Part shown: positions 33,431-64,000 of the stretch, piece by piece
Layout: every line of letters starts with the position of its first letter
Position numbering within the stretch: position 1 is the first letter of the stretch
From: Candidatus Latescibacterota bacterium
GTDB lineage: Bacteria > Latescibacterota > UBA2968 > GCA-2709665
Reading direction: 5' to 3'
Assembly (NCBI GenBank): GCA_963667175.2
Contig: CAXXXF010000003.1
Location: 224,001 to 288,000, forward strand
DNA length: 64,000 bases
Position numbers and translations under genes: made by a program
Notes under the pieces: generated by a model
What the model saw: the letters and a program-made list of their open reading frames with translations, nothing else
Database searches by the model: none
What the model was told of the DNA's origin: nothing

Positions 33431-33681
33431 TACCTCAAAAAAAAGACTTACATGGATGGACAGGATAGACAGGATAAGGACGAAATGAAAAAACCGGAAA
33501 ATTTGAACAATTCATAAATATGAGCCTGTTCGATATGAATATCTCACCCTTGCGCAGTCAATTCAGAAACTGCAACCGACATGGATGGACGGGATAGAGG
33601 CGCGAGCGGGAAAAGTGCTCTCGATTCCGCGGGTCAGCGATAAATCTCACCGCATCGAGTTGTAGGGGCGTCCCTTGTGGG

Positions 33682-33777
33682 CCTGCCTGCGGCGCCTTTC
33701 TGCGTGCCTGCCTGCGCCGAGACCTGCTCGGCAGGCAGGCGTACACGAACAGGCAGGCAGTGCGCTGCGCAGGCAGG
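33682..33777. mobile_element. three nested 30/33-bp CCTG...CAGG palindromic micro-elements inside a GTAGGGGCG REP-like sequence
   Basis: Outer 33 bp (33682-33694 + 33758-33777), middle 30 bp (33695-33706 + 33740-33757), inner 33 bp (33707-33739). Confidence 0.75.
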
Positions 33778-33818
33778 CGACCGGCCTCTCTGGCGTTGGG
33801 ATCCACGGAAAGGAAAAG

Positions 33819-41479: not shown

Positions 41480-41571
41480 TCACTCCTCGATTTGGGGTGT
41501 TCGGAATATGAATGTATCCGTCATTCGTCCGCCCTTACTGTGATGCTGAGAAATCCGACGTGAGGGTGGGG

Positions 41572-41604
41572 CCTGCCTGCGCCAGGCGAAGCGCGGCAGG
41601 CAGG
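41572..41604. mobile_element. 33-bp CCTGCCTG...CAGGCAGG micro-element inserted in a hairpin
   Basis: Removing it restores the perfect stem gggcagacg-ttcc-cgtctgccc. Confidence 0.75.
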
Positions 41605-41687
41605 CAGACGTTCCCGTCTGCCCGCTTCGCACAAACTGCCGTCCTTCGCCAGCCCGAGAAAACCGTTTGCCATCCGCCGGCGCAAAC

Positions 41688-47520: not shown

Positions 47521-48567
47521 TGCGGCAGGCCAACGAAAACCAGCGTTCGGCGATCAGCCGTCAGCTTGAAGCAAAAGCGAACCAGCCATCCGCCCCGCTG
47601 ACCTCTCCCCCCGGCCCCGTAAAGGCAGTGGTCAGGAAAAGCAGTGGTTAGTGATCAGTGGTTAGAAAAAGGCGGTGAGACGGCGAAAACACCGGGCGTA
47701 TATCAATACGCGGATGCCAGATTTTATCGTAGGGCCGGCCGGCCGGTCGCCCCTACAATTGCAACGCCTGCGCTACGAAGGTCGGTAGCCGTCCGCCTTT
47801 GCCTTTCATCCCGTCCGACCTTGTAAGACCCGTTTTCTGGACGAATCGGGTTACGCAGGCTGAAGTCGACGACTGTCGCAGAATGCGTCACGTCGGTCCC
47901 CAACCTCCCAGGGTGGAAAGGCAGCGGTCAGCGAAAGGCGGTGAGACGGTAGACGTGAGAGGTAAGAGATTGCCCGCCTCGTGCGGTTTCATTTCTTGCC
48001 GGAGGCATATAGGAATAAACAATTCGGCAATGACGTCTTCTACCGTCTCCCGTCTCCCGTCTCCCGTCTTACGTCTCACCGCCGTCAGGCGACCTCTCCC
48101 CCCAACCTGCCTGCGCCTGCCTGTCCCGTTGGAGCGGCAGACAGGCCGAGTTCCGCTCGGCAGGCAGGCCCCCTCTCCCAGGGGGAAAAGCAGTGGTCAG
48201 TGGCCGGTGGTCAGTAAAGGCAGCGATCGGCGGTCAGCCGTCAGCTTGAAGCAAAACCAGGACACCTTGAGCGGATCACCGTTCCCCCCTTCTCGTGGGA
48301 AGGGGGAAAGGGGGTAGGTCTGGGAGGCGGTGAAAGGGAGAAAAAAACCAGGGTGTATATCAATTCGCGGCTGCCTGATTCTATTGTAGGGGCGACCGGC
48401 CGGTCGCCCCTACAGACGCAAGGCCGGTGGGGGGCGTTTTCGCAACCATCCATATAAATTCCGTTTTCTGAATGAGGGTAGCGTTACGCAGGCCGAAGCT
48501 GACAACTGTCGCAAAATGCAACATCTTTCTCGCACGCAAACAGCTCCGCATATAAGAGGATCTTGCC
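47521..48567. repeat. modular intergenic repeat block (heptamer tandems, REP hairpins, shared leader); relatives at 45360-45600, 51529-51774, 55237-55634, 59694-60212, 62928-63600
   Basis: Recurrent cagtggtcagtgg, cagccgtcagcttgaa, ccccctctccc..gggagagggg, gtaggggcg..cgcccctaca, cactccccccttggggggagtc and ccatataaattccgttttctgaa modules. Confidence 0.8.
48106..48168. mobile_element. nested 33+30-bp CCTG...CAGG micro-elements (second copy at 59898-59960)
   Basis: Inner 30 bp (48116-48145) within a 33-bp unit. Empty-site versions of the host hairpin (cccggccccctct) occur near 51621 and 55408. Confidence 0.75.
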
Positions 48568-51528
48568 ATGAACAGTCGAGGAAAAGTTGCCATCGGGTTG
48601 CTGATCGCGATGGGCGCGGTATTCGCGGGGGTTGGGTCCGTTTCCGCGCAGACCGCTGGGGACGCGGATTTTGACGACAGCGGCGAGGTGGGCTTTCAGG
48701 ACTTCCTGCTGTTTGCGGCGAAGTTCAATACCGCGAGGGGCGACGCCAATTACGACGCCAGGTTCGACCTGGACGACAGCGGCGCGGTGGGGTTTGCGGA
48801 TTTCCTCGCGTTCGCGCGGTTTTTCGGCGAGACTGTGCCCGTGCCTGCGCTGGCGCTGACCGGGATCGCGCCGTCGGAAGGGATGCCCGGAACGCTGATC
48901 GAGCTGGTGGGGCAATTTGACGCCAATACGGCGTATCAGGTGAAATTCGGCACGGTCTTGTTGCCGGTGTTCGCGCAAGACGCGGAGCGGATTACCGCCA
49001 TGGTGCCCGTGTTGGAAAGCGGGTCCGTGCCGGTGCTCGTGGTTGACCCGTCGGGCCGGGAATCTGATCCCATGTCGTTTGAGGTGCTGGCGCTCTCTGA
49101 ACCGCGGATGAACGTCGAGCAGTTGCAACAGACAGTGTCGGACGTCGGGGACGGCATCGGAAACGTGCTGGCGCCGGTGATTGACGCCGGTGTGTTTCCC
49201 AACGACGCGGACGCGGCGTTGTTCAACCAGGAAATGGATAAGCTGAACGCGGCGTGGGACATCCTCGGGCAGCGGATCGCGGCGCTGCCGCCGGAGGACG
49301 CGGCGCTGTTGACGCAACTTCTGGACAACAGCGGCGCGTTGGGGATTCTGGAGGGCCTGGGACAAATCGACTTAAGCGCGTCGAAGGTACCGGCGGAGAG
49401 CAGTTCGACGCATCAGATATTTTTTCGTGTGGATATCGTCAGTGCGCTCTTGGGCTATGCCGCCGACGTGACCATGGCATTGACGATAGCGAACGCGTTC
49501 TTCCCGGAACCGTTGTTCACGAAAGCCATGACCGCCGCACTGGGGGGGTTCAGCACGTTCATCGGTGTGGTGAAATCCGGAATTGACGCGGCCATACCAA
49601 CGGATTTGCAACGCGTCAGCAAAGTAGAGATAAATCCGACGCCGGTGCTGGTGGGGGGCGTATCCGACGTGGCGTTTTACGGGGAGTTCAAGACGGAGAG
49701 TAATTTGCTCGCTGAGCTGGGATCAGAGGGGGTTGGCAAGGGGATGGAAGAGATCGTGAAGGTCTTCATTCTCAGGAAGAAAGGCGAGAAGTTCCTGGAG
49801 GAGTTACAGGAGAACCCGGTGGTGTCCGACGCGGTCGACGAAATTGTCGGCTTTTTCTCGGGCATCCTCTCGAACGTCGGTTTTGGCGTGACGGGGTTGG
49901 AGAACCTCTTTAATAAAGTAGCGCTGCCGCGGGATGACGTGCGATTGGATATGTCGCTGTACCGTCTCAGCGCGCCAAGCATAATAAAGTGGCTAATACC
50001 GCCGTTCCCCGCCGAAGAGATTGACAAGATGTTGCGCGTTCTGGAAAGAGTCGGAATTGACGTGGTTTCCGAATCGGTGGAGGTCGTGGATCGTGACGAC
50101 GACGTGAATGAAGACGTGGCGGTGTATGATCCTGCAAAGGTTCAACTGACGGGAAAGACAGCGGGCGTGATGCGGCTGAAGATGCGGGCATTTCGGTTTG
50201 TGGAGCCGGGAGGCGAGTCGGGTGATGAGCCGGGAGAAGAAAACAGGAGTTTTTGGGGCCGTGTGTGGGATCGCGCGAAGCAAATCGCGGCAATTCCGTT
50301 GGACTTTCTGAAAAACCTTCATCCTATCTTTCGATTTTCCAATTCGATGGAGCGTCTGGATCCAGTGTACGTTGAATTTGCGGTGAAGGAGCCCGGGTCC
50401 GACGTCGAGGGACCCCTCGAGGTCGAGTCGATACGTAGACTGACCAACTTCAACAGTGGCAATGTCAAGGATTACCAATGGTCGCCGGACGGTCGTCATA
50501 TCGCATTCGATCTGGTTTTTTACGACGAACGCATCGAAAGAGACCGAGAGATCTACGTGGTTGGATTGGACGGGAGTAATCCTCGCAACCTGACCAACAG
50601 CGATTCCTTGGACACAGGTCTCGTTTGGTCTCCTGACAGCCGCCACATTGCCTTCTACTCCAACCGGGACGGCAATACGGAGATCTACCTGATAGGATCG
50701 GACGGGAGCGACCTGCGCAACCTGACCAACAATGACGCCCCGGACGGACATCCCTCGTGGTCGCCTGACGGGCGGCACATCGCCTTTACATCCAAACGCG
50801 ACGGCGACGGCGAGATCTACGTGATGCGTTCGGACGGGAGCAGGCTGCGCAACCTGAGGTACCTCCGCCTTAGCTCTGAATTCTCTCCCGTTTGGTCGCC
50901 GGACGGCCGGCACATCGCGTGCTCATCCTATCGCGACCGCAAACACGAGATCCGCGTGATAGGATCGGACGGGAGGAACCAGCGCAGATCGTCAAACAGC
51001 CACTACCCATTGTGGCCATTCTGGTCGCCGGACGGCAGTCATATCGCCTTCGAATTTTACAACGACCGCTCAAGAGATCGCGAGATTCGCATATTGAGAT
51101 TGGACCCGCACAAATGGGTCACAATGTACCAGTTTTCTAATTCGTTTATTCAACTCAGTTGGTCGCCGGACGGTAGTCATATCGCCTTCGTTAACAAAGC
51201 CACGAGAGGCAGCCGGGCGGGAACCTCTAGCATCAACGTAGCGAGATCGGACGGTAGCGGCAGGTTCAACCTGACAGAGAATGCTACCTCGAGAAACCAT
51301 TGGCCCGTCTGGTCGCCCGATGGCCGGCACATCGCATACGTCTCCCGAAGCGGTAGTTACTTTGCGATTCACATGATGAGGTCGGATGGGAGCGACCTGC
51401 GCAGACTGACCAGCTACGTTGCCTACGACCAGAGGCCCTCGTGGTCTCCTGATGGCCGGCACATCGCCTTCGGTTCCGAGCGCGACCGCGATCTCTACCT
51501 GATCACATTTAAGGGCGGCGGACAATAG
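48568..51528 (+). CDS. secreted dockerin-like/EF-hand + IPT/TIG-like + helical region + TolB/PD40 beta-propeller protein (array member 1)
   Basis: Signal peptide ...VSA|QT; paired ADFDDSGEVGFQDF / FDLDDSGAVGFADF loops; repeated WSPDG.HIA units. Confidence 0.8.
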   Translation: MNSRGKVAIGLLIAMGAVFAGVGSVSAQTAGDADFDDSGEVGFQDFLLFAAKFNTARGDANYDARFDLDDSGAVGFADFLAFARFFGETVPVPALALTGIAPSEGMPGTLIELVGQFDANTAYQVKFGTVLLPVFAQDAERITAMVPVLESGSVPVLVVDPSGRESDPMSFEVLALSEPRMNVEQLQQTVSDVGDGIGNVLAPVIDAGVFPNDADAALFNQEMDKLNAAWDILGQRIAALPPEDAALLTQLLDNSGALGILEGLGQIDLSASKVPAESSSTHQIFFRVDIVSALLGYAADVTMALTIANAFFPEPLFTKAMTAALGGFSTFIGVVKSGIDAAIPTDLQRVSKVEINPTPVLVGGVSDVAFYGEFKTESNLLAELGSEGVGKGMEEIVKVFILRKKGEKFLEELQENPVVSDAVDEIVGFFSGILSNVGFGVTGLENLFNKVALPRDDVRLDMSLYRLSAPSIIKWLIPPFPAEEIDKMLRVLERVGIDVVSESVEVVDRDDDVNEDVAVYDPAKVQLTGKTAGVMRLKMRAFRFVEPGGESGDEPGEENRSFWGRVWDRAKQIAAIPLDFLKNLHPIFRFSNSMERLDPVYVEFAVKEPGSDVEGPLEVESIRRLTNFNSGNVKDYQWSPDGRHIAFDLVFYDERIERDREIYVVGLDGSNPRNLTNSDSLDTGLVWSPDSRHIAFYSNRDGNTEIYLIGSDGSDLRNLTNNDAPDGHPSWSPDGRHIAFTSKRDGDGEIYVMRSDGSRLRNLRYLRLSSEFSPVWSPDGRHIACSSYRDRKHEIRVIGSDGRNQRRSSNSHYPLWPFWSPDGSHIAFEFYNDRSRDREIRILRLDPHKWVTMYQFSNSFIQLSWSPDGSHIAFVNKATRGSRAGTSSINVARSDGSGRFNLTENATSRNHWPVWSPDGRHIAYVSRSGSYFAIHMMRSDGSDLRRLTSYVAYDQRPSWSPDGRHIAFGSERDRDLYLITFKGGGQ

Positions 51529-51774
51529 CCGAGAAGCAGAAGGCAGCAATAAGCGGTCAGCATTCAGCCGTCAGCTTGAATCAAGAGTCAAACCTCCCAT
51601 CCGCCCCGCAGACCTCACCCCCCGGCCCCCTCTCCCAGAGGGAGAGGGGGAGCAGACAGCTTAAAGCAAAACCAGGACACCGCGAGCGGATCACCGTTCC
51701 CCCCTTCCCTCCGGGAAGGGGGATAGGGGGTAGGTCGCACGGAAACCGCTCCGCATACAAGAGGAGATCTCGCC

Positions 51775-54700
51775 ATGAACAGTAAAGGAAGATTTGTCAT
51801 CGGGTTGCTGATCGCGATGGGCGCGGTATTCGCGGGGGTTGGGTCCGTTTCCGCGCAGACCGCTGCGGACGCGGATTTCGACGACAGCGGCGAGGTGGGC
51901 TTTCAGGACTTCCTGCTGTTTGCGGCGAAGTTCAATACCGCGAGGGGCGACGCCAATTACGACGCCAGGTTCGACCTGGACGACAGCGGCGCGGTGGGGT
52001 TTGCGGATTTCCTCGCGTTCGCGGGTCTGTTCGGGCAGCCTGCGCCGCGAGGCAAGCCCCCGGTTGCGGACGCGGGAGCGTACCAGAGCGTGGACACGGG
52101 CGACGTGGTCACGCTCGACGGCTCGAACAGCAGCGACCCGGAAGGGCAGCCGCTGACCTTCGCGTGGCGTCAGATCGACGGGCCGCTCGTCGCGCTATCG
52201 GACGCAAGCGTTGCGCGTCCCACGTTTCGCACCGGCCAGGCCGGGCATTATACGTTCGAGCTTATCGTAAACAACGGCGCGGCTGAGAGCCTGCCCGATA
52301 CGGTTGCCGTCGACGCGGCGACGATCTCGGAGGCGGCGGTGTTTGCGGGCGGCCCCGACGCGTCGTTTACGTATAAGGAGACGTCGGGCGATCAGATGGT
52401 CTTTGCGGTGGGGTCGGGCGCGCCCGAGGTGCAGGTGGGCGCGGTGATGGTCAACACCGTGGATCCGTTCTTCCTGAAGAAGGTGACGCGCGTGGTCAGC
52501 CGGGATGCGGCCGAGCTGGTCGTCGAAACCGAAGACGCCGCACTCACCGACGTCGTGGAAGAGGCCTCGGTACGACAGACGCTCACGTTTCCGGATCCGG
52601 CGTCGAAGGTGGCCCTGATCGACCTTGTCAGCGACCCCAGGCAGGTGTGCACGGACGAGACGGAGGCGTTGTGCGCCACGGCTTCGAACATCAGCCTGTC
52701 TCCCAGAATCCATTTCGATATCAATATCGAGGACGGGGGCGTCGATAGCCTTGTCGTTGCGGCCGGGGTCGAGTTCAAGGCCGATTTCGAGTTCCAAATG
52801 GAAGCGGCCGCGGGCTTCAGCCGGGAGCGCGAAGTCGATCTGAAATTGGGTCCATTGGCAGAGAAGCTGAAGGGCGCCCTTAAGTTCGGTCAGAGTCTGT
52901 CCATCCCGGTAAACGTGACGCCCGAACTGGGCTTTGGTGTGAAAGGAAGCATCCAGGTGGCCGGCAAGTTCAAGGCCGGCGTTAACGTCAACAGAACCAT
53001 CAACGTGGGCATCAAGTACAAGGACGGCCAATTCCACAACTTCGGCACGGGGGACGACGGAGACGCGCAGGACGGGATCTCCCCTGAAATCGGCCTGTAC
53101 GGGAGCGTCAATCTGAGCGCCTACGCGTACGGGAGGCTCAACGTCGGGTTGGGCAAAGGCACCGGCAACTGGGAGGCCGGGGTGGGCGCAGTCAGTTTCG
53201 GACTGGTTCCGTACGTGGGATTTGACGCTGAAGCCAGCGCGACGTCCAGCCGGCGGCAACCGACCCTGGATTGGGCAATCAGCATGGGGGTCAACGCGGA
53301 AGTGAGTGTGAACGGCCCTTATGTCAGGTTTTTCAGCTTGTCACTCGAGACGTTTGCCAGAGATTGGGAATTTGCCCTGTTTCAGGTGACCCTCTCGAAT
53401 GGGAACGCGCCCGTGAGGACGGGACCGGTATTGGTGGACCTTAATCTGGAAGGCGTCACGTATCATGGCGGCGATTTATATGCGCTCTATGCGAAGGAAA
53501 ACGGCGGCAGGGTCTACGCGGAGCGACGGAACCCATGTGGTTCATGGGAATATCGGGAGCTGTTTGATCTTGCAACGGTGGAACATCTGACAGATCGAGA
53601 AAAGGAGCTGAACCGGCGTATCTTTTACGCGATGGGGATCGCCTCTGCCAGCCCCGGTCCGAGCACGAAGATCCTATACGTGGTTGGGCTGGACGACATG
53701 CCGGTCGGGGATGGCGTGAATAGCGTCCCGAGGCTGTATAAATACCAGAATCACAGGACGGAACAGGGATGGGAGGGATGGAAACAGGCTAACGTCTACC
53801 ATTTGTCCGAAGAAAATGGGTTCCCTGTGGGTATCGCCTACGATAACGAAGGGCACTTCTATGTCGTTGACCGCGAGACAAAAAAGGTCCACGTGTATTC
53901 GGAATCCGCAAAGGACGGCATGAACCTCACGTCGGTCAGGACCTTCGATCTGGACTCCGGGAATGGCATTCCGTACGGCATCGTGTACGGCGAAGACCGA
54001 ATCTACGTGGTGGATCGCGCCGGCGACAAGGTCTTTGCATACGCCCGTTCCGGCGAGCGCGTAACGGGCGCGGACTTCAGTCTGGATGACGACAACGGCG
54101 ATCCGTCCGGTATCGCGTATGCCAACGGCGGCTTCTACGTGGCGGATTCCGAAGACGGGATATTCTATGAATACGCGGGTACGGTGACAGTACTTTCAGT
54201 ACGCAGACTGACGAACAACGACGCCGGGGACAGTGGTCCCCAGTGGTCGCCTGACGGCCGGCAGATCGCCTTCAATACCGACCGCGACGACGGCAATTCT
54301 GAGATCTACGTGATGGAATCGGACGGGAGCGACCCGCGCAACCTGACCAACAATGACGCTTCGGACTTTCATCCCTCGTGGTCGCCTGACGGCCGTCAGA
54401 TCGCGTTCACCTCCTATCGCGACGGCGATTCTGAGATCTACGTGATGGGATCGGACGGGAGCGACCCGCGCAACCTGACCAACAACCACAGCGACGACGA
54501 CGAACCTTTTCCGGGGTGGTCTTCGGACGTTAATCCCTGGTGGTCTCCCGATGGCCGACAGATCGCCTTCAGATCCAGACGCACAGTTTTTGGCTATTAT
54601 GATCGCCGGCACCGGCCCTGGAATGTCTGGGTGATGGAATCGGACGGGAGCAACCCGCGCAGTATTTCCTATAACATTACACTGTGGGCCAACAGTTCAG

Positions 54701-55236
54701 GTTGGCCTTACCCCTGGTCGCCTGACGGCCGGCTTCTCGCGTTCACCGACAAAGACGACGAGCACGGCCATATCTACGTGACTGATTCGTATGGGAGCTT
54801 TCGCCGCGCACTGAACGGCGGCGCCTCCGTTCACGCCAGTAACTCTCATCCCTCGTGGTCGCCTGACGGCCGTTATATCGCCTTCCATTCCGACGATTGG
54901 GTGTACAGAGAAGGGGTGGAAATCTACGTGATTGGGCCGGATGGTCGCAACCCGTGCAACCTGACCAACAACAGCAGGAGGGCCTACGAACGCGATCCCT
55001 CGTGGTCGCCTGACGGCCGGTATATCGCGTTCACCTCCTATGGCGACGGCAACAGCGAGATCTACGTGATGGGATCGGACGGGAGCGACCCGCGCAACCT
55101 GACCAACAATGACGGTAATGACGGGTACCCCGTCTGGTCTCCCGATGGCCGGCGGATCGCGTTCATCTCCGATCGCGACGGCAACGTCGAGATCTACGTG
55201 ATCGATCTGCAGATCGTCAACGCAGGCGGGCAATAG
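51775..55236 (+). CDS. secreted dockerin-like + PKD-like + beta-rich + NHL-like + PD40 protein (array member 2)
   Basis: Same N-terminal ~88 aa; PVADAG..VTLDGSNSSDPEG..LTFAW.Q..GP (PKD-like); P.GI.Y....YVVD repeats; WSPDG repeats. Confidence 0.8.
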   Translation: MNSKGRFVIGLLIAMGAVFAGVGSVSAQTAADADFDDSGEVGFQDFLLFAAKFNTARGDANYDARFDLDDSGAVGFADFLAFAGLFGQPAPRGKPPVADAGAYQSVDTGDVVTLDGSNSSDPEGQPLTFAWRQIDGPLVALSDASVARPTFRTGQAGHYTFELIVNNGAAESLPDTVAVDAATISEAAVFAGGPDASFTYKETSGDQMVFAVGSGAPEVQVGAVMVNTVDPFFLKKVTRVVSRDAAELVVETEDAALTDVVEEASVRQTLTFPDPASKVALIDLVSDPRQVCTDETEALCATASNISLSPRIHFDINIEDGGVDSLVVAAGVEFKADFEFQMEAAAGFSREREVDLKLGPLAEKLKGALKFGQSLSIPVNVTPELGFGVKGSIQVAGKFKAGVNVNRTINVGIKYKDGQFHNFGTGDDGDAQDGISPEIGLYGSVNLSAYAYGRLNVGLGKGTGNWEAGVGAVSFGLVPYVGFDAEASATSSRRQPTLDWAISMGVNAEVSVNGPYVRFFSLSLETFARDWEFALFQVTLSNGNAPVRTGPVLVDLNLEGVTYHGGDLYALYAKENGGRVYAERRNPCGSWEYRELFDLATVEHLTDREKELNRRIFYAMGIASASPGPSTKILYVVGLDDMPVGDGVNSVPRLYKYQNHRTEQGWEGWKQANVYHLSEENGFPVGIAYDNEGHFYVVDRETKKVHVYSESAKDGMNLTSVRTFDLDSGNGIPYGIVYGEDRIYVVDRAGDKVFAYARSGERVTGADFSLDDDNGDPSGIAYANGGFYVADSEDGIFYEYAGTVTVLSVRRLTNNDAGDSGPQWSPDGRQIAFNTDRDDGNSEIYVMESDGSDPRNLTNNDASDFHPSWSPDGRQIAFTSYRDGDSEIYVMGSDGSDPRNLTNNHSDDDEPFPGWSSDVNPWWSPDGRQIAFRSRRTVFGYYDRRHRPWNVWVMESDGSNPRSISYNITLWANSSGWPYPWSPDGRLLAFTDKDDEHGHIYVTDSYGSFRRALNGGASVHASNSHPSWSPDGRYIAFHSDDWVYREGVEIYVIGPDGRNPCNLTNNSRRAYERDPSWSPDGRYIAFTSYGDGNSEIYVMGSDGSDPRNLTNNDGNDGYPVWSPDGRRIAFISDRDGNVEIYVIDLQIVNAGGQ

Positions 55237-55634
55237 CCGAGAAGCGGGGGGACCTTCATTCGGGGAAAGGCAGTGGCCGGTAGAGGCAGTGGACAGTGGT
55301 CAGCGAAAAGCAGCAATCAGCATTCAGCCGTCAGCTTGAAGCAAGAGCGAACCAATTGCACTAAGCGCCGGGACGTGGCAGGAATAAACGGAACGTGGCC
55401 CTCACCCCCCGGCCCCCTCTCAAAGGGGAAAGGCAGTGGTCAGTGGTTAGTGGCCAGAGAGAGGCGGTGAGGATATCGACTGTCACTCCCCCCTTGGGGG
55501 GGAGTCGGCAAGGCAAGGGCGCCAGCCCGAAGGCGCGCCGGAGGGGGGCGCTTTCGGGTCTACCCATGTAAATTCCGTTTTCCGAACACAGAGGTTGACG
55601 CAAGCCGCCCAGCATACACGAGGGAAATCTCGCC

Positions 55635-58600
55635 ATGAAAAACAAAAGAAAATTCGTCATCGGGTTGCTGATCGCGATGGGCGCGGTATTCGCGGGGGTT
55701 GGGTCTGTCTCCGCGCAGACCGCTGCGGACGCGGATTTCGACGACAGCGGCGAGGTGGGCTTTCAGGACTTCCTGCTGTTTGCGGCGAAGTTCAATACCG
55801 CGAGGGGCGACGCCAATTACGACGCCAGGTTCGACCTGGACGACAGCGGCGACGTGGGGTTTGCGGACTTCCTCACGTTCGCGCGGTTTTTCGGCGAGAC
55901 TGTGCCCGTGCCTGCGCTGGCGCTGACCGGGATCGCGCCGTCGGAAGGGATGCCCGGAACGCTGATCGAGCTTGTGGGGCAATTTGACGCCAATACGGCG
56001 TATCAGGTGAAATTCGGCACGTTCTTGTTGCCGGTGTTCGCGCAAGACGCGGAGCGGATTACCGCCATGGTGCCCGTGTTGGAAAGCGGGTCCGTGCCGG
56101 TGCTCGTGGTTGACCCGTCGGGCCGGGAGTCTGAGCCCACGTCGTTTGAGGTGCTGGCGCTCCCCGAGCCGCGGATGAACCCCGAGCAACTGCAACAGGC
56201 GGTGTCGGGGGTCGGGGACGGCATCGGGAACGTGCTGGCGCCGTTGACCGCGCCGGACAGTCTGTTCAGCGCGGCGGACGCGGCGATGATCAAGGATGAA
56301 ATGGGCAAGCTCAACGCGGCGTGGGGCATCCTGGGGCAGCGGATCGAGGCGCTGCCGCCGGAGGACGCGGCGCTGTTGACGCATCTTCTGGACAACAGCG
56401 GCGCGTTGGGGATTCTGGAGGGTCTGGGAACAATCGACCTGAGCGCGTCGAAGGCGGTGGAGCTGGGCGCCGCCTTCCGTCATCAGAAGTTGTTCCAGGC
56501 GGACGTGGTGAGCTTTCTGATGGGGAACGCCAGCGCCGCGACTTCAGCAGCCACGTTGATCGCGGCGGTGGTTCCTGGCGGGCAGGCCTTACTCCCGATT
56601 CTGGCGGCCATCGACGCCGTCAGCGGCGTGACGAAAACGGTCATCGACGCGATCTTTCCAACGGATCTGGAGAACCTCAGGGTCGAAATATCTCCGACGC
56701 CGGTGGCGGTGGAGGGCGCGTCCGACGTGTCGTATTACGGGGACTTTGTCACGGAGAGCGACGCCATACGCGCGCTGGGGGACAAACTGCTGGAGGGCGC
56801 CGTAGAGGAACTGTTGGACGAATTCCTCAAGATACCGAAGGTGTCCGAGAAGGCGGCGGAGGAAATCGTCGGTTTTGTCACCGGCATCCTTACTTCTGCG
56901 GGTATGAAGGGATTCGATTGGGCCCTGCGCGGCGCGACGATAAGCCCCGCGCTGAAGGACGTGCCATTGGATATGTCGGTGTATCGACTCAGCATATTCG
57001 ACGTTCTGCAGGTCGTACCGACGTTGCCGGGCAAGGAGACGGCGGACGCGATCGAGTATCTGCTGGGAAAGGCCGGGATCGACGTGACGTTCTTCGATCC
57101 GGTGGTGGTCGAGAACGAGGCGGTGGCGGCGTACGACAAGCTGAATGCTCGGCTGACGGGAAAGACGGCGGGGGCAACGCGGCTGACGGTGCGGGCGATA
57201 CGATTTGTGGAGTGGGACTCCTGGTGGAATTGGCTCGGTATCTGTGTGTGGGAGACGGTCGGGCCCGTGTATCAAAATATCAACGTCGGGACGACGTCAA
57301 CCAGCCCACCCTTTGATCTGGATAGCGACAACACTTGGCCGCATGGGATCACGTATGTCAACAACCGGTTCTACGTGGTTGATGATCGGCATGATAAGGT
57401 TTTCGCGTATACGGTTTCGGGGCAGCGTGACGCGGCTTCGGAGTTCGATCTGAATGACGAAAACGGGTCTCCGAAAGGTATCACGTATGCCAACAACCGT
57501 TTCTACGTGATTGATAGTTGGCCTGATGATAAGGTTTTTGCGTATACGGTTTCGGGGCAGCGTGACGCGGCTTCGGAGTTCGATCTGAATGACGAAAACG
57601 GGTCTCCGAAAGGTATCACGTATGCCGACAACCGGTTCTACGTGGTTGATAGTTGGCATGATAAGGTCTTTGCGTATACGGTTTCGGGGCAGCGTGACGC
57701 GGCTTCGGACTTCGATCTGGATAGCGGAAGGGCATATCCGCGAGGTATGACGCATGACAACGATCAACCCGCCGGTATCACCTACGCGAACAACCGGTTC
57801 TACGTGGTTGATGATTATGATGCTAAGGTCTATGTGTATACGGTTTCGGGGCAGCGTGACGTGGCTTCGGAGTTCGATCTGAATAGCGACAGCCGTACTC
57901 CGCATGGGATTACGTATGCCAACGATCGATTCTACGTCGTTGATTATTCCGTGGAAAGGATCTTCGTGTACAAACATTCAGGCCAGTATAGAGCGAGACC
58001 GGACCTGGTTGCGCAATCTTCGACCAGTGAGGGTCTATTGACGCCTGGCCAATCATTCACCCTCTCCGCGACTGTAGAGAACGTCGGGGACGCGCAAGCG
58101 TCTTCCACAATGCTGCGCTACTATTACTCCGACGATTGGTCTATTTCGCAGAACGACACGCTTCTGGGGTCGGCTGCAGTGGGCGTTCTGAATCCATCGG
58201 ACAGGAGCCTTGTCAACGTAACGTTAACCGCGCCATCGGCAGTAGGTACGTATTACTACCGGGTATACGCAGACGTGGTTGATGGGGAAGAAATAACGTA
58301 TAACAACCCTTCGGTGGCATCGGTTGTCTCCGTATCTTCGGAGACGCCTGCAACCACGGGTTTTTCTATCGCTACCAACGTTCATCCAACCAGCATCACG
58401 TATGCCAACGACCGATTTTACGTGGCTGATTTGCTTAAAAGAAAAATCTTCGCGTACATGAGTTCGGGCGAGCGTGATGAGGCTTCGGACTTCGGGGTCA
58501 ATGTTGCTTCGTATGGTATCACGTATGCCAATGACCGATTCTTTGTCGCCGGTCCCGACACCGTCTATGCGTACACGGTCTCCGGTCAGCGAGATGCGGC

Positions 58601-59693
58601 TTCGGATCTGCCTTTCGGCAGTAATCGTTTGACGGGTATCACGTATGCCAACGACCGATTTTACGTCGTACATGACTATTCCGATAAGGCCATTGCGTAT
58701 ACGAGTTTGGGTCAGCGAGACAGTCGTTCAGACTTCAGTTTGCAATACGATGGACCGGCGGGAATCACCTATGCCAACGGGCAGTTCTACGTGGCCAACA
58801 ATGATCTGGGCGGCGGTTGGCAAAAACTCGAGGTCCATGCGTATGGAAGTTCCGGCGGGCGTGCCGCGGCTTCAGATTTCGTTCCGAGATATGGCCCGTT
58901 CTTTGACACCTTTTCCGGAGGTATCACGTATGCCAACGATCGGTTTTACATTGTTTCAGCGGGCAAAGTTGACAAGCTCGGCGACGAGGTAGTCCGTGCG
59001 TATTCAAGCTCCGGTGGGCGTCATTCAGCTTCAGACTTCAGGTTGGAGTTAACTCTTCCGAATGGCATCGCCTATGGCAACAACCGATTCTACGTCGCTG
59101 ACGACTCGCGCAGGGTACTTGTGTACACGAATTCGGGGACGCGTGACGCCGCCTCGGACTTTCTCGTCCGCTATGGTAATCCAACTGGCATCACGTATGC
59201 CAACAATCGACTCTACGTCGTTCATCGCAATTCCAGTACGGTCAGCGTGTATACGCGTTCGGGGCAGCTGGAATCGGATTCAGGCTTCCGTCTGAGTTCC
59301 AACAACGACAAACCGGCCGGTATCACGTACGGCAACCACCGATTCTACGTCATTGATGATAATGATAATAATACTCGTACCTTTGTTTACACGAGATCGG
59401 GAGAGTATTTGGAGACCTTCGATACGGATCGCGCCCTCGAGCCGGGCGGCATCACCTACGTCAACGGCAAACTCTACGTCCCCGACACGTATACGACCTA
59501 CGTGTACACGGATTTGGGACTTCGTGATGCAGATTCGGAGTTCACGCATGGTTTTCAGTCGACTGGAATCGCGTATACGGATAACCGGTTGTTTGTCGTC
59601 GGTCTGTCCTATGGTAAAGTTAGTCCATCGCGCGGTTGGAGTGATATTGCATTTGGCGGCATCGTGAGGGCGTACACGCTTTCCGGGCAATAG
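55635..59693 (+). CDS. secreted dockerin-like + IPT/TIG-like + NHL-like repeats + CARDB-like Ig + NHL-like repeats (array member 3)
   Basis: Same N-terminus; many GITYANNRFYVVD repeats; PDLV...PGQSFTLSATVENVG (CARDB-like). Confidence 0.8.
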   Translation: MKNKRKFVIGLLIAMGAVFAGVGSVSAQTAADADFDDSGEVGFQDFLLFAAKFNTARGDANYDARFDLDDSGDVGFADFLTFARFFGETVPVPALALTGIAPSEGMPGTLIELVGQFDANTAYQVKFGTFLLPVFAQDAERITAMVPVLESGSVPVLVVDPSGRESEPTSFEVLALPEPRMNPEQLQQAVSGVGDGIGNVLAPLTAPDSLFSAADAAMIKDEMGKLNAAWGILGQRIEALPPEDAALLTHLLDNSGALGILEGLGTIDLSASKAVELGAAFRHQKLFQADVVSFLMGNASAATSAATLIAAVVPGGQALLPILAAIDAVSGVTKTVIDAIFPTDLENLRVEISPTPVAVEGASDVSYYGDFVTESDAIRALGDKLLEGAVEELLDEFLKIPKVSEKAAEEIVGFVTGILTSAGMKGFDWALRGATISPALKDVPLDMSVYRLSIFDVLQVVPTLPGKETADAIEYLLGKAGIDVTFFDPVVVENEAVAAYDKLNARLTGKTAGATRLTVRAIRFVEWDSWWNWLGICVWETVGPVYQNINVGTTSTSPPFDLDSDNTWPHGITYVNNRFYVVDDRHDKVFAYTVSGQRDAASEFDLNDENGSPKGITYANNRFYVIDSWPDDKVFAYTVSGQRDAASEFDLNDENGSPKGITYADNRFYVVDSWHDKVFAYTVSGQRDAASDFDLDSGRAYPRGMTHDNDQPAGITYANNRFYVVDDYDAKVYVYTVSGQRDVASEFDLNSDSRTPHGITYANDRFYVVDYSVERIFVYKHSGQYRARPDLVAQSSTSEGLLTPGQSFTLSATVENVGDAQASSTMLRYYYSDDWSISQNDTLLGSAAVGVLNPSDRSLVNVTLTAPSAVGTYYYRVYADVVDGEEITYNNPSVASVVSVSSETPATTGFSIATNVHPTSITYANDRFYVADLLKRKIFAYMSSGERDEASDFGVNVASYGITYANDRFFVAGPDTVYAYTVSGQRDAASDLPFGSNRLTGITYANDRFYVVHDYSDKAIAYTSLGQRDSRSDFSLQYDGPAGITYANGQFYVANNDLGGGWQKLEVHAYGSSGGRAAASDFVPRYGPFFDTFSGGITYANDRFYIVSAGKVDKLGDEVVRAYSSSGGRHSASDFRLELTLPNGIAYGNNRFYVADDSRRVLVYTNSGTRDAASDFLVRYGNPTGITYANNRLYVVHRNSSTVSVYTRSGQLESDSGFRLSSNNDKPAGITYGNHRFYVIDDNDNNTRTFVYTRSGEYLETFDTDRALEPGGITYVNGKLYVPDTYTTYVYTDLGLRDADSEFTHGFQSTGIAYTDNRLFVVGLSYGKVSPSRGWSDIAFGGIVRAYTLSGQ

Positions 59694-60212
59694 CCGCGAT
59701 GCGGGGGGGACCGTTACCAGGGGAAAGGCAGTGGCGAGGAAAAGCAGTGGTTAGTGGCCAGTGGTCAGTAAAGGCAGCGTTCAGCCGTCAGCCACGACCT
59801 GTTGACGATAGGGATTGGCGATAACAATTCAGGAAAATCCGTCGGTTTGTAGGGGCGGTTCGCGAACCGCCCGATTTGCGCAGAGCTCTCCCCCCGGCCT
59901 GCCTGCGCCTGCCTGTCCCGTTGGAGCGGCAGACAGGTCGAGTTCTGCTCGGCAGGCAGGCCCCCTCTCCCAAAGGGAGAGGGGGAGCAGGACAGAGTGT
60001 ATATCCATTCGCGGATGCCTGGATCTTGTGTAGGGGCGGCCGGCCGGTCGCCCCTACAGATGCGACGCCGGTGGGGGGCGTTTTCGCAACCATCCATATA
60101 AACTCCGTTTTCTGAACACAGAGGTTGACGCAGGCCGAAGCCGACAACTGTCGCAAAATGCGTCATCTTAACTCGCACGGAAACCGCTCTCCATACAAGA
60201 GGAGGTCTCGCC

Positions 60213-62927
60213 ATGAACAGTAAAAGAAAAGTCGTCATCGGGTTGCTGATCGCGATGGGCGTTGTCTTCGCGGGGGTCGGGTCTGTTTCCGCGCAGACCG
60301 CTGCGGACGCGGATTTTGACGACAGCGGCGAGGTGGGGTTTCAGGACTTCCTGCTGTTTGCGGCGAAGTTCAATACCGCAAGGGGCGACGCGGATTACGA
60401 CGCCAGGTTCGACCTGGACGACAGCGGCGAGGTGGGGTTTGCGGATTTCCTCACGTTCGCGCGGTTTTTCGGCGAGACTGCGCCCGTGCCGGCGCTGGCG
60501 CTGACCGGGATCGCGCCGTCGGAAGGGATGCCCGGAACGCTGATCGAGCTTGTGGGGCAATTTGACGGCGATACGGCGTATCAGGTGAAATTCGGCACGG
60601 TTTTGTTCCCGGTGTTCGCGCAAGACGCGGAACGGATTACCGCCATGGTGCCCGTGTTGGAAAGCGGGTCCGTGCCGGTTCTCGTGGTTGACCCGTCGGG
60701 CCCGGAATCTGATCCCATGTCGTTTGAGGTGCTGGCGCTCCCTGAACCGCGGATGAACGTCCAGCAATTGCAACAGACCGTGTCGGACGTCGGGGCGGGT
60801 ATCGGGAATGCCCTGGCGCCGGTGATGGACGCCGGTGTGTTTCCCAGCGACGCGGACGCGGCGTTGTTCAGCCAGGAAATGGATAAGCTGAACGCGGCGT
60901 GGGGCGTCATCGGGCAGCGGATCGCGGCCCTGCCGCCGGAGGACGCCGCGCTGTTGACGCAACTTCTGGACAACAGCGGGGCGTTGGGCATTCTGGAGGG
61001 CCTCGGGAAAATCGATCTGAGCGCGTCGAAGGTACCGGCGGAGAGCAGTTTGACGCATCAGGTATTTTTTCGGGTGGATATCGTCAGTGCGCTCTTGGGC
61101 TATGCCAGTGAAGTGACCATGCTAATCACGATAGTTTCGGCGGTGGCGCCGGAACCGTTGTTCACGAAAGCCGCAGCCGGCGCACTGGGGGGTATAGGTA
61201 TATTAACCGGTACGTTGAAACTTGCAATTGACGCGGCCATTCCAACGGATTTGCAACGCGTCAGCAGAGTGGAGATAACTCCGACGCCGGTGCTGGTGGA
61301 GGGCGTATCCGACGTGGTGTTTTTCGGGGAGTTTAAGACGGAGAGTAATTTAGCCAGTGAGCTGGCGTCGCAGAAGATTGATGAGGGGATTACGACAATT
61401 TTGGAATTTGTTATCAAAAGGAAGATACCGGCAGCCAAGAAGCTGCTGGAAGATAGAGATAAAGGGATAGAGTCGCCGGCGAGCGAAGCGCTGGATGAAA
61501 TTGTCGGCTTTTTCTCGGGCATCTTCTCAGAGATCGGTATTGACGAGACGGGGTTGAATACCCTCTTGGAGAAAGTGGAACTGTCGCGCAATGACGTGCG
61601 ATTGGATATGTCGCTATACCGTCTCAGTGTGCCAAGCATAATAAAGTGGGGTATACCGATATTCCCCGCCGAAGAGATTGACAAGATGCTGGGCGTTCTG
61701 GAAAAAGTCGGAATTGACGTGGTTTCCGAATCGGTGGAGGTCGTGGACAGTCGGGACGTCGCAAATGAAGACGTGGCGGTGTATGATCCTGCAACGGTTC
61801 AACTGACGGGAAAGACAGCGGGCGTGATGCGGCTGAAGATGCGGGCATTTCGGTTTGTGGAGCCGGGAGGCGAGTCGGGTGATGAGCCGGGAGAAGAAAA
61901 AAAAGGACTTTTGGGCCGCCTGTGGGATCGCGCGAAGCAAATTGCGACAATTCCGTTGGACTTTCTGAAAAACCTTCATCCTATCTTTCGTTTTTTCAAT
62001 TCGATGGAGCGTCTGGATCCAGTGTACGTTGAATTTGCGGTGAAGGTGTCCGGCTCCGACGTCGAGGAACCCCTTGTGGTCGAGTCAATACGCAATCTGA
62101 CGCGAGGCCATGACGGCTTAGGACCCTCGTGGTCGCCCGATGGAAGGCGCATCGCCTTCTCATCCGAGCGTGGCGCCAACTACGAGATCTACGTGATGGG
62201 CTCAGACGGAAGCAATCCGCGCAGCCTTACCAACGCCATTGGAAGCGACATGGACCCCTCGTGGTCGCCCGATGGAAGGCACATCGCCTTCTCATCCGAG
62301 CGTGACGGCAACGACGAGATCTACGTGATGGGCTCAGACGGAAGCAATCCGCGCAACCTTACCAACGCCATTGGAAGCGACAGGTACCCCTCGTGGTCGC
62401 CCGATGGAAGGCACATCGCCTTCTCATCCACTCGCGACGGCAGATTGGAGATCTACGTGATGGGCTCAGACGGGAGCAATCCGCGCAGACTCACCAACCA
62501 CAGTGGAGGCGGCTGGGACCCCTCGTGGTCGCCCGATGGAAGGCACATTGCCTTCACATCCGGGGGTGATGTCAACTCCTTTTGGGAGTCCGAGATCTAC
62601 GTGATGGGCTCAGACGGGAGCAATCCGGGCAACCTTACCAACCAAAGTGGAATCGACATGGGCCCCTCGTGGTCGCCCGATGGAAGGCGCATCGCCTTCA
62701 CATCCGACAGTGGCGCCAACTACTACAACATCTACGTGATGGGCTCAGACGGAAGCAATCCGCGCAGCCTTACCAACGCCATTGGAAGCGACAATGACCC
62801 CAATGTAATGGACAGGTACCCCTCGTGGTCGCCCGATGGAAGGCACATCGCCTTCTCATCCTTACGCGACTTCGACTTTGAGGTCTTCCAGATCTACGTG
62901 ATCACCTTTCAGGGCGGCGGGCAATAG
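60213..62927 (+). CDS. secreted dockerin-like + IPT/TIG-like + helical region + PD40 protein (array member 4)
   Basis: Same N-terminus; middle region closely related to member 1; six PSWSPDGR.IAF repeats. Confidence 0.8.
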   Translation: MNSKRKVVIGLLIAMGVVFAGVGSVSAQTAADADFDDSGEVGFQDFLLFAAKFNTARGDADYDARFDLDDSGEVGFADFLTFARFFGETAPVPALALTGIAPSEGMPGTLIELVGQFDGDTAYQVKFGTVLFPVFAQDAERITAMVPVLESGSVPVLVVDPSGPESDPMSFEVLALPEPRMNVQQLQQTVSDVGAGIGNALAPVMDAGVFPSDADAALFSQEMDKLNAAWGVIGQRIAALPPEDAALLTQLLDNSGALGILEGLGKIDLSASKVPAESSLTHQVFFRVDIVSALLGYASEVTMLITIVSAVAPEPLFTKAAAGALGGIGILTGTLKLAIDAAIPTDLQRVSRVEITPTPVLVEGVSDVVFFGEFKTESNLASELASQKIDEGITTILEFVIKRKIPAAKKLLEDRDKGIESPASEALDEIVGFFSGIFSEIGIDETGLNTLLEKVELSRNDVRLDMSLYRLSVPSIIKWGIPIFPAEEIDKMLGVLEKVGIDVVSESVEVVDSRDVANEDVAVYDPATVQLTGKTAGVMRLKMRAFRFVEPGGESGDEPGEEKKGLLGRLWDRAKQIATIPLDFLKNLHPIFRFFNSMERLDPVYVEFAVKVSGSDVEEPLVVESIRNLTRGHDGLGPSWSPDGRRIAFSSERGANYEIYVMGSDGSNPRSLTNAIGSDMDPSWSPDGRHIAFSSERDGNDEIYVMGSDGSNPRNLTNAIGSDRYPSWSPDGRHIAFSSTRDGRLEIYVMGSDGSNPRRLTNHSGGGWDPSWSPDGRHIAFTSGGDVNSFWESEIYVMGSDGSNPGNLTNQSGIDMGPSWSPDGRRIAFTSDSGANYYNIYVMGSDGSNPRSLTNAIGSDNDPNVMDRYPSWSPDGRHIAFSSLRDFDFEVFQIYVITFQGGGQ

Positions 62928-63600
62928 CCGCGAAGCAGGGTGACCCTCATCGGGGGAAAGGCAGTGGTCGGGAAAAGCAGTGGCCAGTGATCAGTGGTCA
63001 GTAAAGGCAACGGCCAGTAAAGGCGGTGAGAGGGTAGACGGGAGATGATATGAATGCCTCGTGCGGTTTCATTGCTTGCCAAGGGCATAACGGGAAGGTC
63101 ATCCGGGCAAGGATCTCTTCTCCCGTCTAACGTCTTCCGTCTCACCGATTTCAGGTTTTTCATCTACCGTCCACATGCGGCTTACCGCCGTCGGGCGACC
63201 TCTCCCCCCGTCCCCCTCTCCCAGGGGGAGAGGGGGAGAACAGCAGGCGTTTCGCCATCAAGAGACTTCGCGTGTGGTTGTTGCGTCACTCGAAGCGTGT
63301 TCAGCAGGCGACAATTCCCCCCTTCCCCCCGGGAAGGGGGAAAGGGGGTAGGTCTGGGAGGCGGTGAGAGGGGGAGAAAACCGGGCGAGGGTATCGACTA
63401 TCACTCCCCCCTTGGGGGGGAGTCGGCAAGGCAAGGGCGCCAGCCCGAAGGCGCGCCGGTGGGGGGCGTTTCCGCAACCATCCATATAAATTCCGTTTTC
63501 TGAACACAGAGGTTGACGCAAGCCGTAACCGACAACTGTCGCAAAATGCGTCACCTGATCTCGCACGCAAACCGCTCTCCATACAATAGGAGGTCTCGCC

Positions 63601-64000
63601 ATGAATAATAAAAGAAAAGTCGTCATCGGGTTGCTGATCGCGATGGGCGTTGTCTTCGCGGGCGCCGGGTCCGTTTCCGCGCAGACCGCTGCGGACGCGG
63701 ATTTTGACGACAGCGGCGAGGTGGGCTTTCAGGACTTCCTGCTGTTTGCCGCGAAGTTCGGGCTGAGCCAGGGCGACGCGGATTACGACGCCAGGTTCGA
63801 CCTGGACGGCAGCGGCGCGGTGGGGTTTGCGGATTTCCTCGCGTTCGCGCGGCTGTTCGGCGAGACTGTGCCCGTGCCTGCGCTGGCGCTGACCGGGATC
63901 GCGCCGTCGGAAGGGATGCCCGGAACGCTGATCGAGCTGGTGGGGCAGTTCGACGCCGATACGGCGTATCAGGTGAAATTCGGCACGGTCTTGTTGCCGG
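63601..64000 (+). CDS. array member 5, truncated by the window end (absent from the ORF track)
   Basis: AGGAGG RBS; MNNKRKVVIGLLIAMGVVFAGAGSVSAQTAADADFDDSGEVGFQDFLLFAAKFGLSQGDADYDARFDLDGSG... open to nt 64000. Confidence 0.85.
   Translation, partial: MNNKRKVVIGLLIAMGVVFAGAGSVSAQTAADADFDDSGEVGFQDFLLFAAKFGLSQGDADYDARFDLDGSGAVGFADFLAFARLFGETVPVPALALTGIAPSEGMPGTLIELVGQFDADTAYQVKFGTVLLP

Follow-up and report, generated by a model that had tools for sequence, protein, structure and literature searches.

Short palindromic repeats found in the window (the whole stretch of DNA analysed, 64,000 nucleotides) are probably non-autonomous miniatures of a 279–285-bp element encoding a GIY-YIG nuclease, by which they would be moved in trans. 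A common origin of the miniatures and this cassette is very likely. On a modest balance of the evidence, the pair represents a new class of transposable elements, in which a 93-residue GIY-YIG nuclease is the sole protein and candidate transposase, the 282-bp autonomous form resides in host proteins, and duplication-free miniatures of 19–36 bp are distributed across phyla and phages, possibly via a closed DNA dumbbell. If this reading is true, the miniatures are among the smallest mobile DNAs. The movement of 20–30-bp bacterial repeats has been an open question since SDR-type elements were described, and a miniature together with a 93-residue candidate enzyme with the same ends and target rule makes this question testable with oligonucleotides and one small protein.

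Micro-elements of the window, the genome and other phyla

The window contains eight units at four loci, the nesting of which was recovered by recursive removal of inner units: 33[30[33]] at 33682, a single 33-bp unit at 41572, and 33[30] at both 48106 and 59898. At the first locus, the outer 33-bp unit (33682..33777, no strand assigned; 33682–33694 and 33758–33777) is situated at a G^C site of a GTAG-type REP, a hairpin with a GTAG foot (33662..33782, plus strand), which is split by the nest and the class of which follows the accessible part of PMC3733652. This unit encloses a 30-bp unit (33695..33757, no strand assigned; 33695–33706 and 33740–33757) with a degenerate left end, CCTTTCTG, and an inner 33-bp unit (33707..33739, plus strand), identical over its first 15 and last 14 bases to the ends of the 282-bp GIY-YIG cassette of the relative G009. 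The lone unit (41572..41604, plus strand) is located at a G^C site within a GTGG-foot REP (41566–41623), of a type that flanks RAYT genes in relatives. The outer 33-bp unit at 48106..48168 (plus strand; 48106–48115 and 48146–48168) is inserted at an A^C site in a CCCTCTCCC hairpin, and its first 16 and last 14 bases are identical to the ends of the G009 cassette; in its bulge, at a G^C site, is a 30-bp unit (48116..48145, no strand assigned). A further CCCTCTCCC hairpin carries, at a G^C site, the outer 33-bp unit 59898..59960 (plus strand; 59898–59907 and 59938–59960), with an inner 30-bp unit (59908..59937, no strand assigned) of the same subtype and at the same site as the unit at 48116; the T of the G^T junction inside this nest is likely a later C>T change in the host unit. 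Empty host repeats are represented by a CCCTCTCCC repeat at 51613..51650 (plus strand; G^C site at about 51625/51626) and a partly degenerate one at 55399..55433 (plus strand; G^C site at about 55412/55413). The units, loci, nesting and empty hosts of the sequence-only reading were all found again in the window, as was its list of junctions, namely, six G^C, A^C at 48105 and G^T inside 59898. A scan of the window against Rfam gave 0 matches. Positions 48568–64000 are occupied by a tandem array coding for five large paralogues (900–1350 aa) that look secreted and have the same N-terminus; the spacers between them contain heptamer repeats and CCCTCTCCC hairpins.

The genome searched comprises 5.5 Mb in 18 contigs (label G000; the window is C3:224001–288000). 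The pattern has 449 matches on both strands and the reversed-pattern control has 0, so the micro-elements are not a product of chance. The strict pattern yields 300 units and the relaxed one 302, of which 40 surfaced only once inner units had been removed. The ends common to the family are CCTGCCTG...CAGGCAGG. Lengths fall into discrete classes of 19 (51 units), 20 (16), 21 (8), 27 (9), 28 (34), 30 (54), 33 (114) and 36 bp (16); the fixed length of 30 or 33 bp proposed for the family therefore fails outside the window. Keeping of the reading frame is likewise not intrinsic, since about a third of the units (101/302, all of 19, 20 or 28 bp) are not multiples of three, against 201/302 that are.

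What stays constant among the units is a terminal stem of 8 bp, to which most units of 27 bp or longer add a bulge of 2 nt and an inner stem. Among 47 distinct 30-mers, inner-stem pairs 11–22 to 14–19 are Watson–Crick in 44, 34, 36 and 27, with shuffle means of 37, 26, 23 and 12; 69 distinct 33-mers show a similar trend, with one pair not significant, and the figures of this test, which took in both lengths, are inflated by related sequences. Circular folds are predicted to be stable (−7 to −10 kcal/mol) for five of the eight window units. Two CCTG repeats can form a minidumbbell, according to the consulted portion of PMC5661647.

In G000, a MITE-like repeat some 150 bp long, with ends GTTGAAAAA (e.g., C2:175476–175660 and C3:521669–521850), has three separate hot-spots for micro-elements; in chimeric copies of it, the stretch from one hot-spot to another is gone, as would follow from a deletion by recombination between micro-elements. 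The same genome contains eight near-identical copies (C2:256808–259921, C4:83652, C4:341733, C6:444397, C9:14893, C14:379688, C15:871973) which, by motif, we take to be of the IS110 type; their right ends, the ends compared, are unrelated.

Micro-element counts in 30 relatives range from 0 to 392. A GTDB scan gave at least 115 loci in Verrucomicrobiota, Bacteroidota, Patescibacteria, Planctomycetota, Desulfobacterota-type and other genomes, and an identical 30-mer occurs in several phyla among the loci listed. Two scans of viral contigs revealed 47 and 40 loci with micro-elements, where 20-mer junctions are purine^pyrimidine in 30/49 cases, duplicates included. Contamination may affect some metagenome-assembled genomes; on its own, it does not account for so wide a recurrence of the pattern. 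The runs that hold the window DNA best are sponge metagenomes, and the source organism may be sponge-associated. One 23-bp subtype makes up nearly all listed matches in G552 (116 in all), which reads as a recent burst or host amplification. A kin family of hairpins, with a stem, a 3x3 internal loop and a CAAG tail, is inserted in heptamer arrays of phage contigs (L237–L239, L005) and was not found in G000; it may have a nuclease cassette of its own.

Target sites and filled and empty alleles

The preference for G^C noticed in the window holds genome-wide (254/302 copies; 44/70 distinct sites; background 10%), and purine^pyrimidine junctions account for 57/70 distinct sites (background 23%). 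A 2-bp GC duplication would be invisible at a G^C site, because the micro-element starts with C and ends with G. The absence of target duplication, claimed from the window, is settled instead by sites of other types in multi-copy IS hosts (presumably IS256, IS630 and IS3-like, by motif). At G^T sites, compared with empty copies 98, 99 and 97% identical, the unit lies between two bases with nothing duplicated, and the same was found at G^G (empty copy 96%), A^T (97%) and A^G (90%) sites.

Filled and empty alleles were found at several levels. An empty paralogue exists for 219/264 outer loci; among 11 loci fetched from relatives, the host REP of 33682 is present and empty at six and absent at five; and a 33+36 nest, in frame in a 1050-codon single-copy gene, is missing in 14/14 relatives of the genus, although this nest fits a 2-bp AC duplication and a terminal substitution equally well. 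In metagenome runs X2 and X4, contigs pass over the entire REP surrounding 41572 and, in X4, one contig lacks the nest at 48106; all of these are low-depth single contigs. The clean inserts and filled/empty alleles support the proposal of a minimal mobile family.

Hosts are represented by REPs, MITEs, IS copies and other micro-elements, as well as by genes, in frame. The statement that hosts are always palindromic repeats was thus too narrow, transposase ORFs and one ordinary gene being hosts too, and targeting of hairpin loops found no support, since the junction bases are no more unpaired than the same dinucleotide nearby (pairing probability 0.63 vs 0.68). No bias of micro-elements to the transcription strand was detected (73 vs 56; 22 vs 21). 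Units of triplet length are also seemingly in frame in core genes at L074, L096 and L065, presumably TsaD-like and Mur-ligase-like ORFs and a DnaE-like context, as named by sequence.

Repeats hold 19,903/474,612 GC steps (4%) but 223/261 outermost units and 45/69 sites. Such a skew is expected if the miniatures are immobile, being scars of cassettes that lost their middle and spread only by host-repeat amplification and gene conversion; also consistent with this are one MITE site common to 55 copies, common ends that permit core swaps, with chimeric flanks occurring, and entire host REPs that are present or absent between strains. However, scars would have to account for the number of distinct sites, about 70; for subtypes that recur unchanged at unrelated sites and across different phyla; for the three units of one IS copy (a single transposase copy at C15:115495–116750 of G000, with micro-elements of 30, 20 and 19 bp within 450 bp); for the nest in a gene present once, the counterparts of which are empty in 14/14 relatives; for self-insertion at several different positions; and for covarying inner stems. 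All this makes immobility quite improbable. Movement in trans by a nuclease-encoding element is preferred.

The GIY-YIG cassette and other candidate movers

A profile of 12 small Slx1-like GIY-YIG proteins (tRNA-fragment type) was searched in 31 genomes, and its first and third best hits were domains within long ORFs of G009 and G016. In both genomes the type I hsdM gene contains a 282-bp in-frame insert, starting with CCTGCCTGCGCCGA and ending with CTCGGCAGGCAGG, at sites A^C and A^T. The hsdM of G000, with 91% protein identity to that of G009, is empty at this point, and the comparison of filled and empty genes shows a cassette without target duplication. Cassette ends were confirmed at the DNA level at 8/10 cassette loci in three phyla, L419 and L422 having no complete ends; the eight junctions are A^C (4), A^T (2), C^C (1) and G^G (1). 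The cassette is 279–285 bp in size, with the nuclease ORF in the loop; none of the intact copies seen has its own stop codon. Similar to the miniatures, it has the ends CCTGCCTG(CG)...CAGGCAGG and a predicted fold consisting of an 8-bp stem, a bulge of 2 nt and an inner stem that covaries. Both forms are situated between two target bases, mostly of the purine^pyrimidine type, without duplication or loss of target sequence.

At the protein level, the terminal peptides LPA...RQAG are both present in 37/39 fusion proteins, at four host sites. At 1e-10, an exhaustive protein search returned 346 clusters; among the 153 proteins examined, parsing succeeded for 123, and both ends were present in 82. 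Flank contexts number 77 distinct ones in 32 clusters, that is, about 32 different host-protein sites, and the residue before the cassette is D, N, H, G or R in 66/77 contexts, which implies a purine before the cut. Among 46 scanned fusions, hosts are HsdS (29), as well as HsdM, HsdR, type III Mod, DUF1156 methylase, trigger factor (two sites), QueC, ArgRS, TrmD and TatD. In the hsdM of G016 (L392), three in-frame passengers were found, namely, a CCTGCCTG micro-element, a DUF559-type domain with CCCTCTCCC hairpins, its label carried over from the close relative P0003, and the GIY-YIG cassette. No cassette was found in the viral contigs or plasmids searched.

The 93-aa product is PF01541 GIY-YIG alone, according to a domain scan; Y22, G24, R32 and E69 are invariant across 38 aligned rows, and the values dN 0.10 and dS 1.14 (dN/dS about 0.09, G009 vs G016) indicate purifying selection. 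The structure model has a pLDDT of 91.5, with UPF0213 and Slx1 as the best fold matches at a Foldseek E just above 0.001, while the single-sequence fold was poor (pLDDT 46). The cassette product contains no HUH, DDE or splicing domain, and the cassette has no single fixed home site; about 32 different sites and an insert consisting of GIY-YIG alone set it apart from inteins and homing introns.

Cassette carriers make up 2/168 genomes of the phylum of the source organism, ranking 2 and 4 of 31 by micro-element count, and 7/401 and 1/401 genomes of two other phyla. The eight outside carriers have 32, 14, 15, 8, 8, 116, 24 and 0 micro-element matches, the last belonging to a copy with an internal stop in the ORF, and 12 non-carriers of the two phyla have 0–6. 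The five best-scoring carriers differ from the ten first-listed non-carriers with P = 0.0003, in a set of incomplete genomes of unknown kinship, two weaker carriers having been counted afterwards. In three carriers, micro-elements cluster around the cassette, at most a few kb away. It is absent from G000 and from element-rich G015, G011, G006, G021 and G098 (48 matches), and no cassette of close similarity was found in G097 (149 matches) or G099 (190 matches); the cassette must accordingly be a visitor or have functional kin. Subtypes 27, 28 and some 30-mers match known cassette ends over only 4+9 bases. In run X1, one 311-base contig crosses the cassette–hsdM border with 96% identity, so the cassette occurs in a community that also holds the source organism or a close strain; X1 may be the very sample from which the window derives. 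One contig of run X4 has the empty allele. The family had been described with an unknown mobiliser, for which the cassette, with the same ends, is now a candidate.

Around the micro-elements, no recurring neighbour gene was found in G000 or at 162 public loci, a Pfam search of 114 short ORFs near elements gave one GIY-YIG, and neither Y1 transposases nor small GIY-YIG genes track element load in 31 relatives. At L240, L245, L250, L257, L088, L199, L333, L362 and L411, a small GIY-YIG gene is flanked by an intact tRNA on one side and a broken tRNA fragment on the other, and the fragment often holds a micro-element. It is conceivable, though rather unlikely, that a related free-standing Slx1-like nuclease beside duplicated tRNA fragments is the mover, the in-frame cassette being one passenger with the same ends. 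Of 28 such loci (about 22 distinct), four distinct ones have an exact micro-element in the tRNA fragment, no more than about 60 bp from the gene, and more have degenerate or kin hairpins; for 4/53 element places in 61 genomes of the phylum Patescibacteria, a small GIY-YIG gene among those listed is at most 300 bp away, as counted by eye, and such genes are present in element-rich G099, G100, G034 and G086. At control four-helix-bundle genes, a short element variant was nearby at 1/30 loci. However, the element lies in the tRNA scar beside the gene and not at the gene ends, 0/30 best GIY-YIG loci of the Patescibacteria sample have an element nearby, genomes of this sample also hold elements in heptamer arrays and other repeats, and G009, G015 and G011 have no small free-standing GIY-YIG.

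The absence of duplication, the bulged hairpin and the REP hosts recall a REP-associated HUH (Y1) transposase that moves hairpins as single strands, in the manner of REP and IS200-like ends. RAYTs cleave and rejoin single-stranded DNA near bulged REPs, according to the accessible part of PMC8266576, and RAYT-type matches were found in 5/6 of the most element-rich genomes of the genus. Such a mover is nevertheless very unlikely: all RAYTs inspected (20 loci) are flanked by their own REPs and not by micro-element ends, the micro-elements have no GTAG foot, the reported cuts are C|T or CA rather than purine^pyrimidine, no leading/lagging bias was detected by GC-skew strand in the draft genome (93 vs 93), and G017, with up to 32 Y1 matches, has 2 elements. 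RAYT-like Y1 domains also occur inside ORFs of 1200–1440 codons (G011:C2:170050, G007:C1:1912863, G009:C1:4547970 and G016:C1:3072165; REP-flanked in L387), possibly representing a parallel in-frame lifestyle of HUH domains.

Proposed movement and comparison with known systems

For the preferred mover, the nuclease of the cassette, the following course can be proposed. The enzyme would recognize the terminal stem when the DNA is single-stranded or extruded as a cruciform, cutting on both sides at the stem foot; the freed strand could close into a dumbbell, the G^C joint of which would be a step of the target type. A nick at a purine^pyrimidine step would then receive the strand, with joining by host ligase or by direct strand transfer, and the insert would be fixed by replication. 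The cassette may visit a genome, often on restriction-modification genes, seed miniatures and then be lost, as in G000, while later growth in copy number would come chiefly from hitch-hiking, with MITEs, REPs and IS copies as vehicles, and from exchange between common ends. GIY-YIG enzymes are known as hydrolytic nucleases, which weighs against this account, the joining activity being a proposal; part of the selection on the ORF could stem from the need to fold within the host protein, and the direction may be the reverse, with the cassette being a micro-element that captured a nuclease gene. The literature searched, excluding subscription papers and supplements, contains no description of these ends or of the cassette/miniature pair, and a mobiliser role for GIY-YIG enzymes of this kind is not established in it. 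The system is categorically new if the nuclease is the mover, and otherwise a new SDR-like family. In the former case, GIY-YIG would join the enzymes that drive insertion, and an explanation would be at hand for the GIY-YIG 'domain fusions' scattered among restriction-modification and housekeeping proteins as well as for the stray LPA/RQAG peptides in annotations; a very small tool for scarless insertion may also be on offer.

Among known systems, MITEs and Rickettsia palindromic elements are gene-less derivatives with the inverted ends of a parent and include in-frame insertions in genes; MITEs are 70–300 bp in length and normally duplicate the target. Micro-elements share with MITEs the terminal inverted repeats common to an autonomous element, but they are 19–36 bp long, with no duplication and no DDE parent.

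IS200/IS605 elements also insert without target duplication. A likeness of REP/REPIN-RAYT and IS200/IS605 to the present pair lies in small bulged hairpins, an autonomous partner in trans and patchy copy number (available text of PMC8266576, PMC3116915, PMC3733652). As described there, these systems use an HUH tyrosine enzyme and a 5' tetranucleotide guide, whereas here a GIY-YIG enzyme and a blunt 8-bp stem are found, and REPs are targets. No GTAG or CGTC foot was found 5' of the micro-element hairpin; the ends are those of a blunt stem, and the flanks vary by host. The pair works like REP-RAYT or IS-MITE pairs but lacks what defines them, namely, the foot, the HUH or DDE enzyme and the duplication.

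SDRs of cyanobacteria are mobile repeats of about 20–30 bp, of which SDR5 inserts precisely at one HIP1 position (PMC4390886, PMC2884548, in the parts available). Compared with SDRs by this description alone, micro-elements are cross-phylum and have a candidate enzyme.

In the HsdR protein MCA0838, a Slx1-like domain was recently inserted in frame, and the authors ask if such domains are parasites (Dunin-Horkawicz et al. 2006, PMC1564403); this is one protein-level case, for which DNA ends, a target rule or miniatures are not described in the accessible text. Ssn proteins bind hairpins of single-stranded DNA and cut beside them (Chenal et al. 2025, PMC11893778). Similar to the cassette, Ssn (cd10448) with NTS/SRM combines a single-domain GIY-YIG with hairpin repeats of its own, and its authors note an IS-like layout and repeat expansion, mobility of Ssn being a hypothesis there. 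The Ssn gene lies between two separate GTC-foot hairpins, whereas the cassette ORF is the loop of one stem, stop-less and in frame in its host; the consulted portion of that paper does not describe the Ssn repeats as clean inserts, and its GTC-foot consensus of Ssn/SRM is missing from the micro-elements, as compared by eye. The cassette protein is 31% identical to an Ssn-like protein of G000, and Ssn is the closest enzyme precedent for the cassette nuclease.
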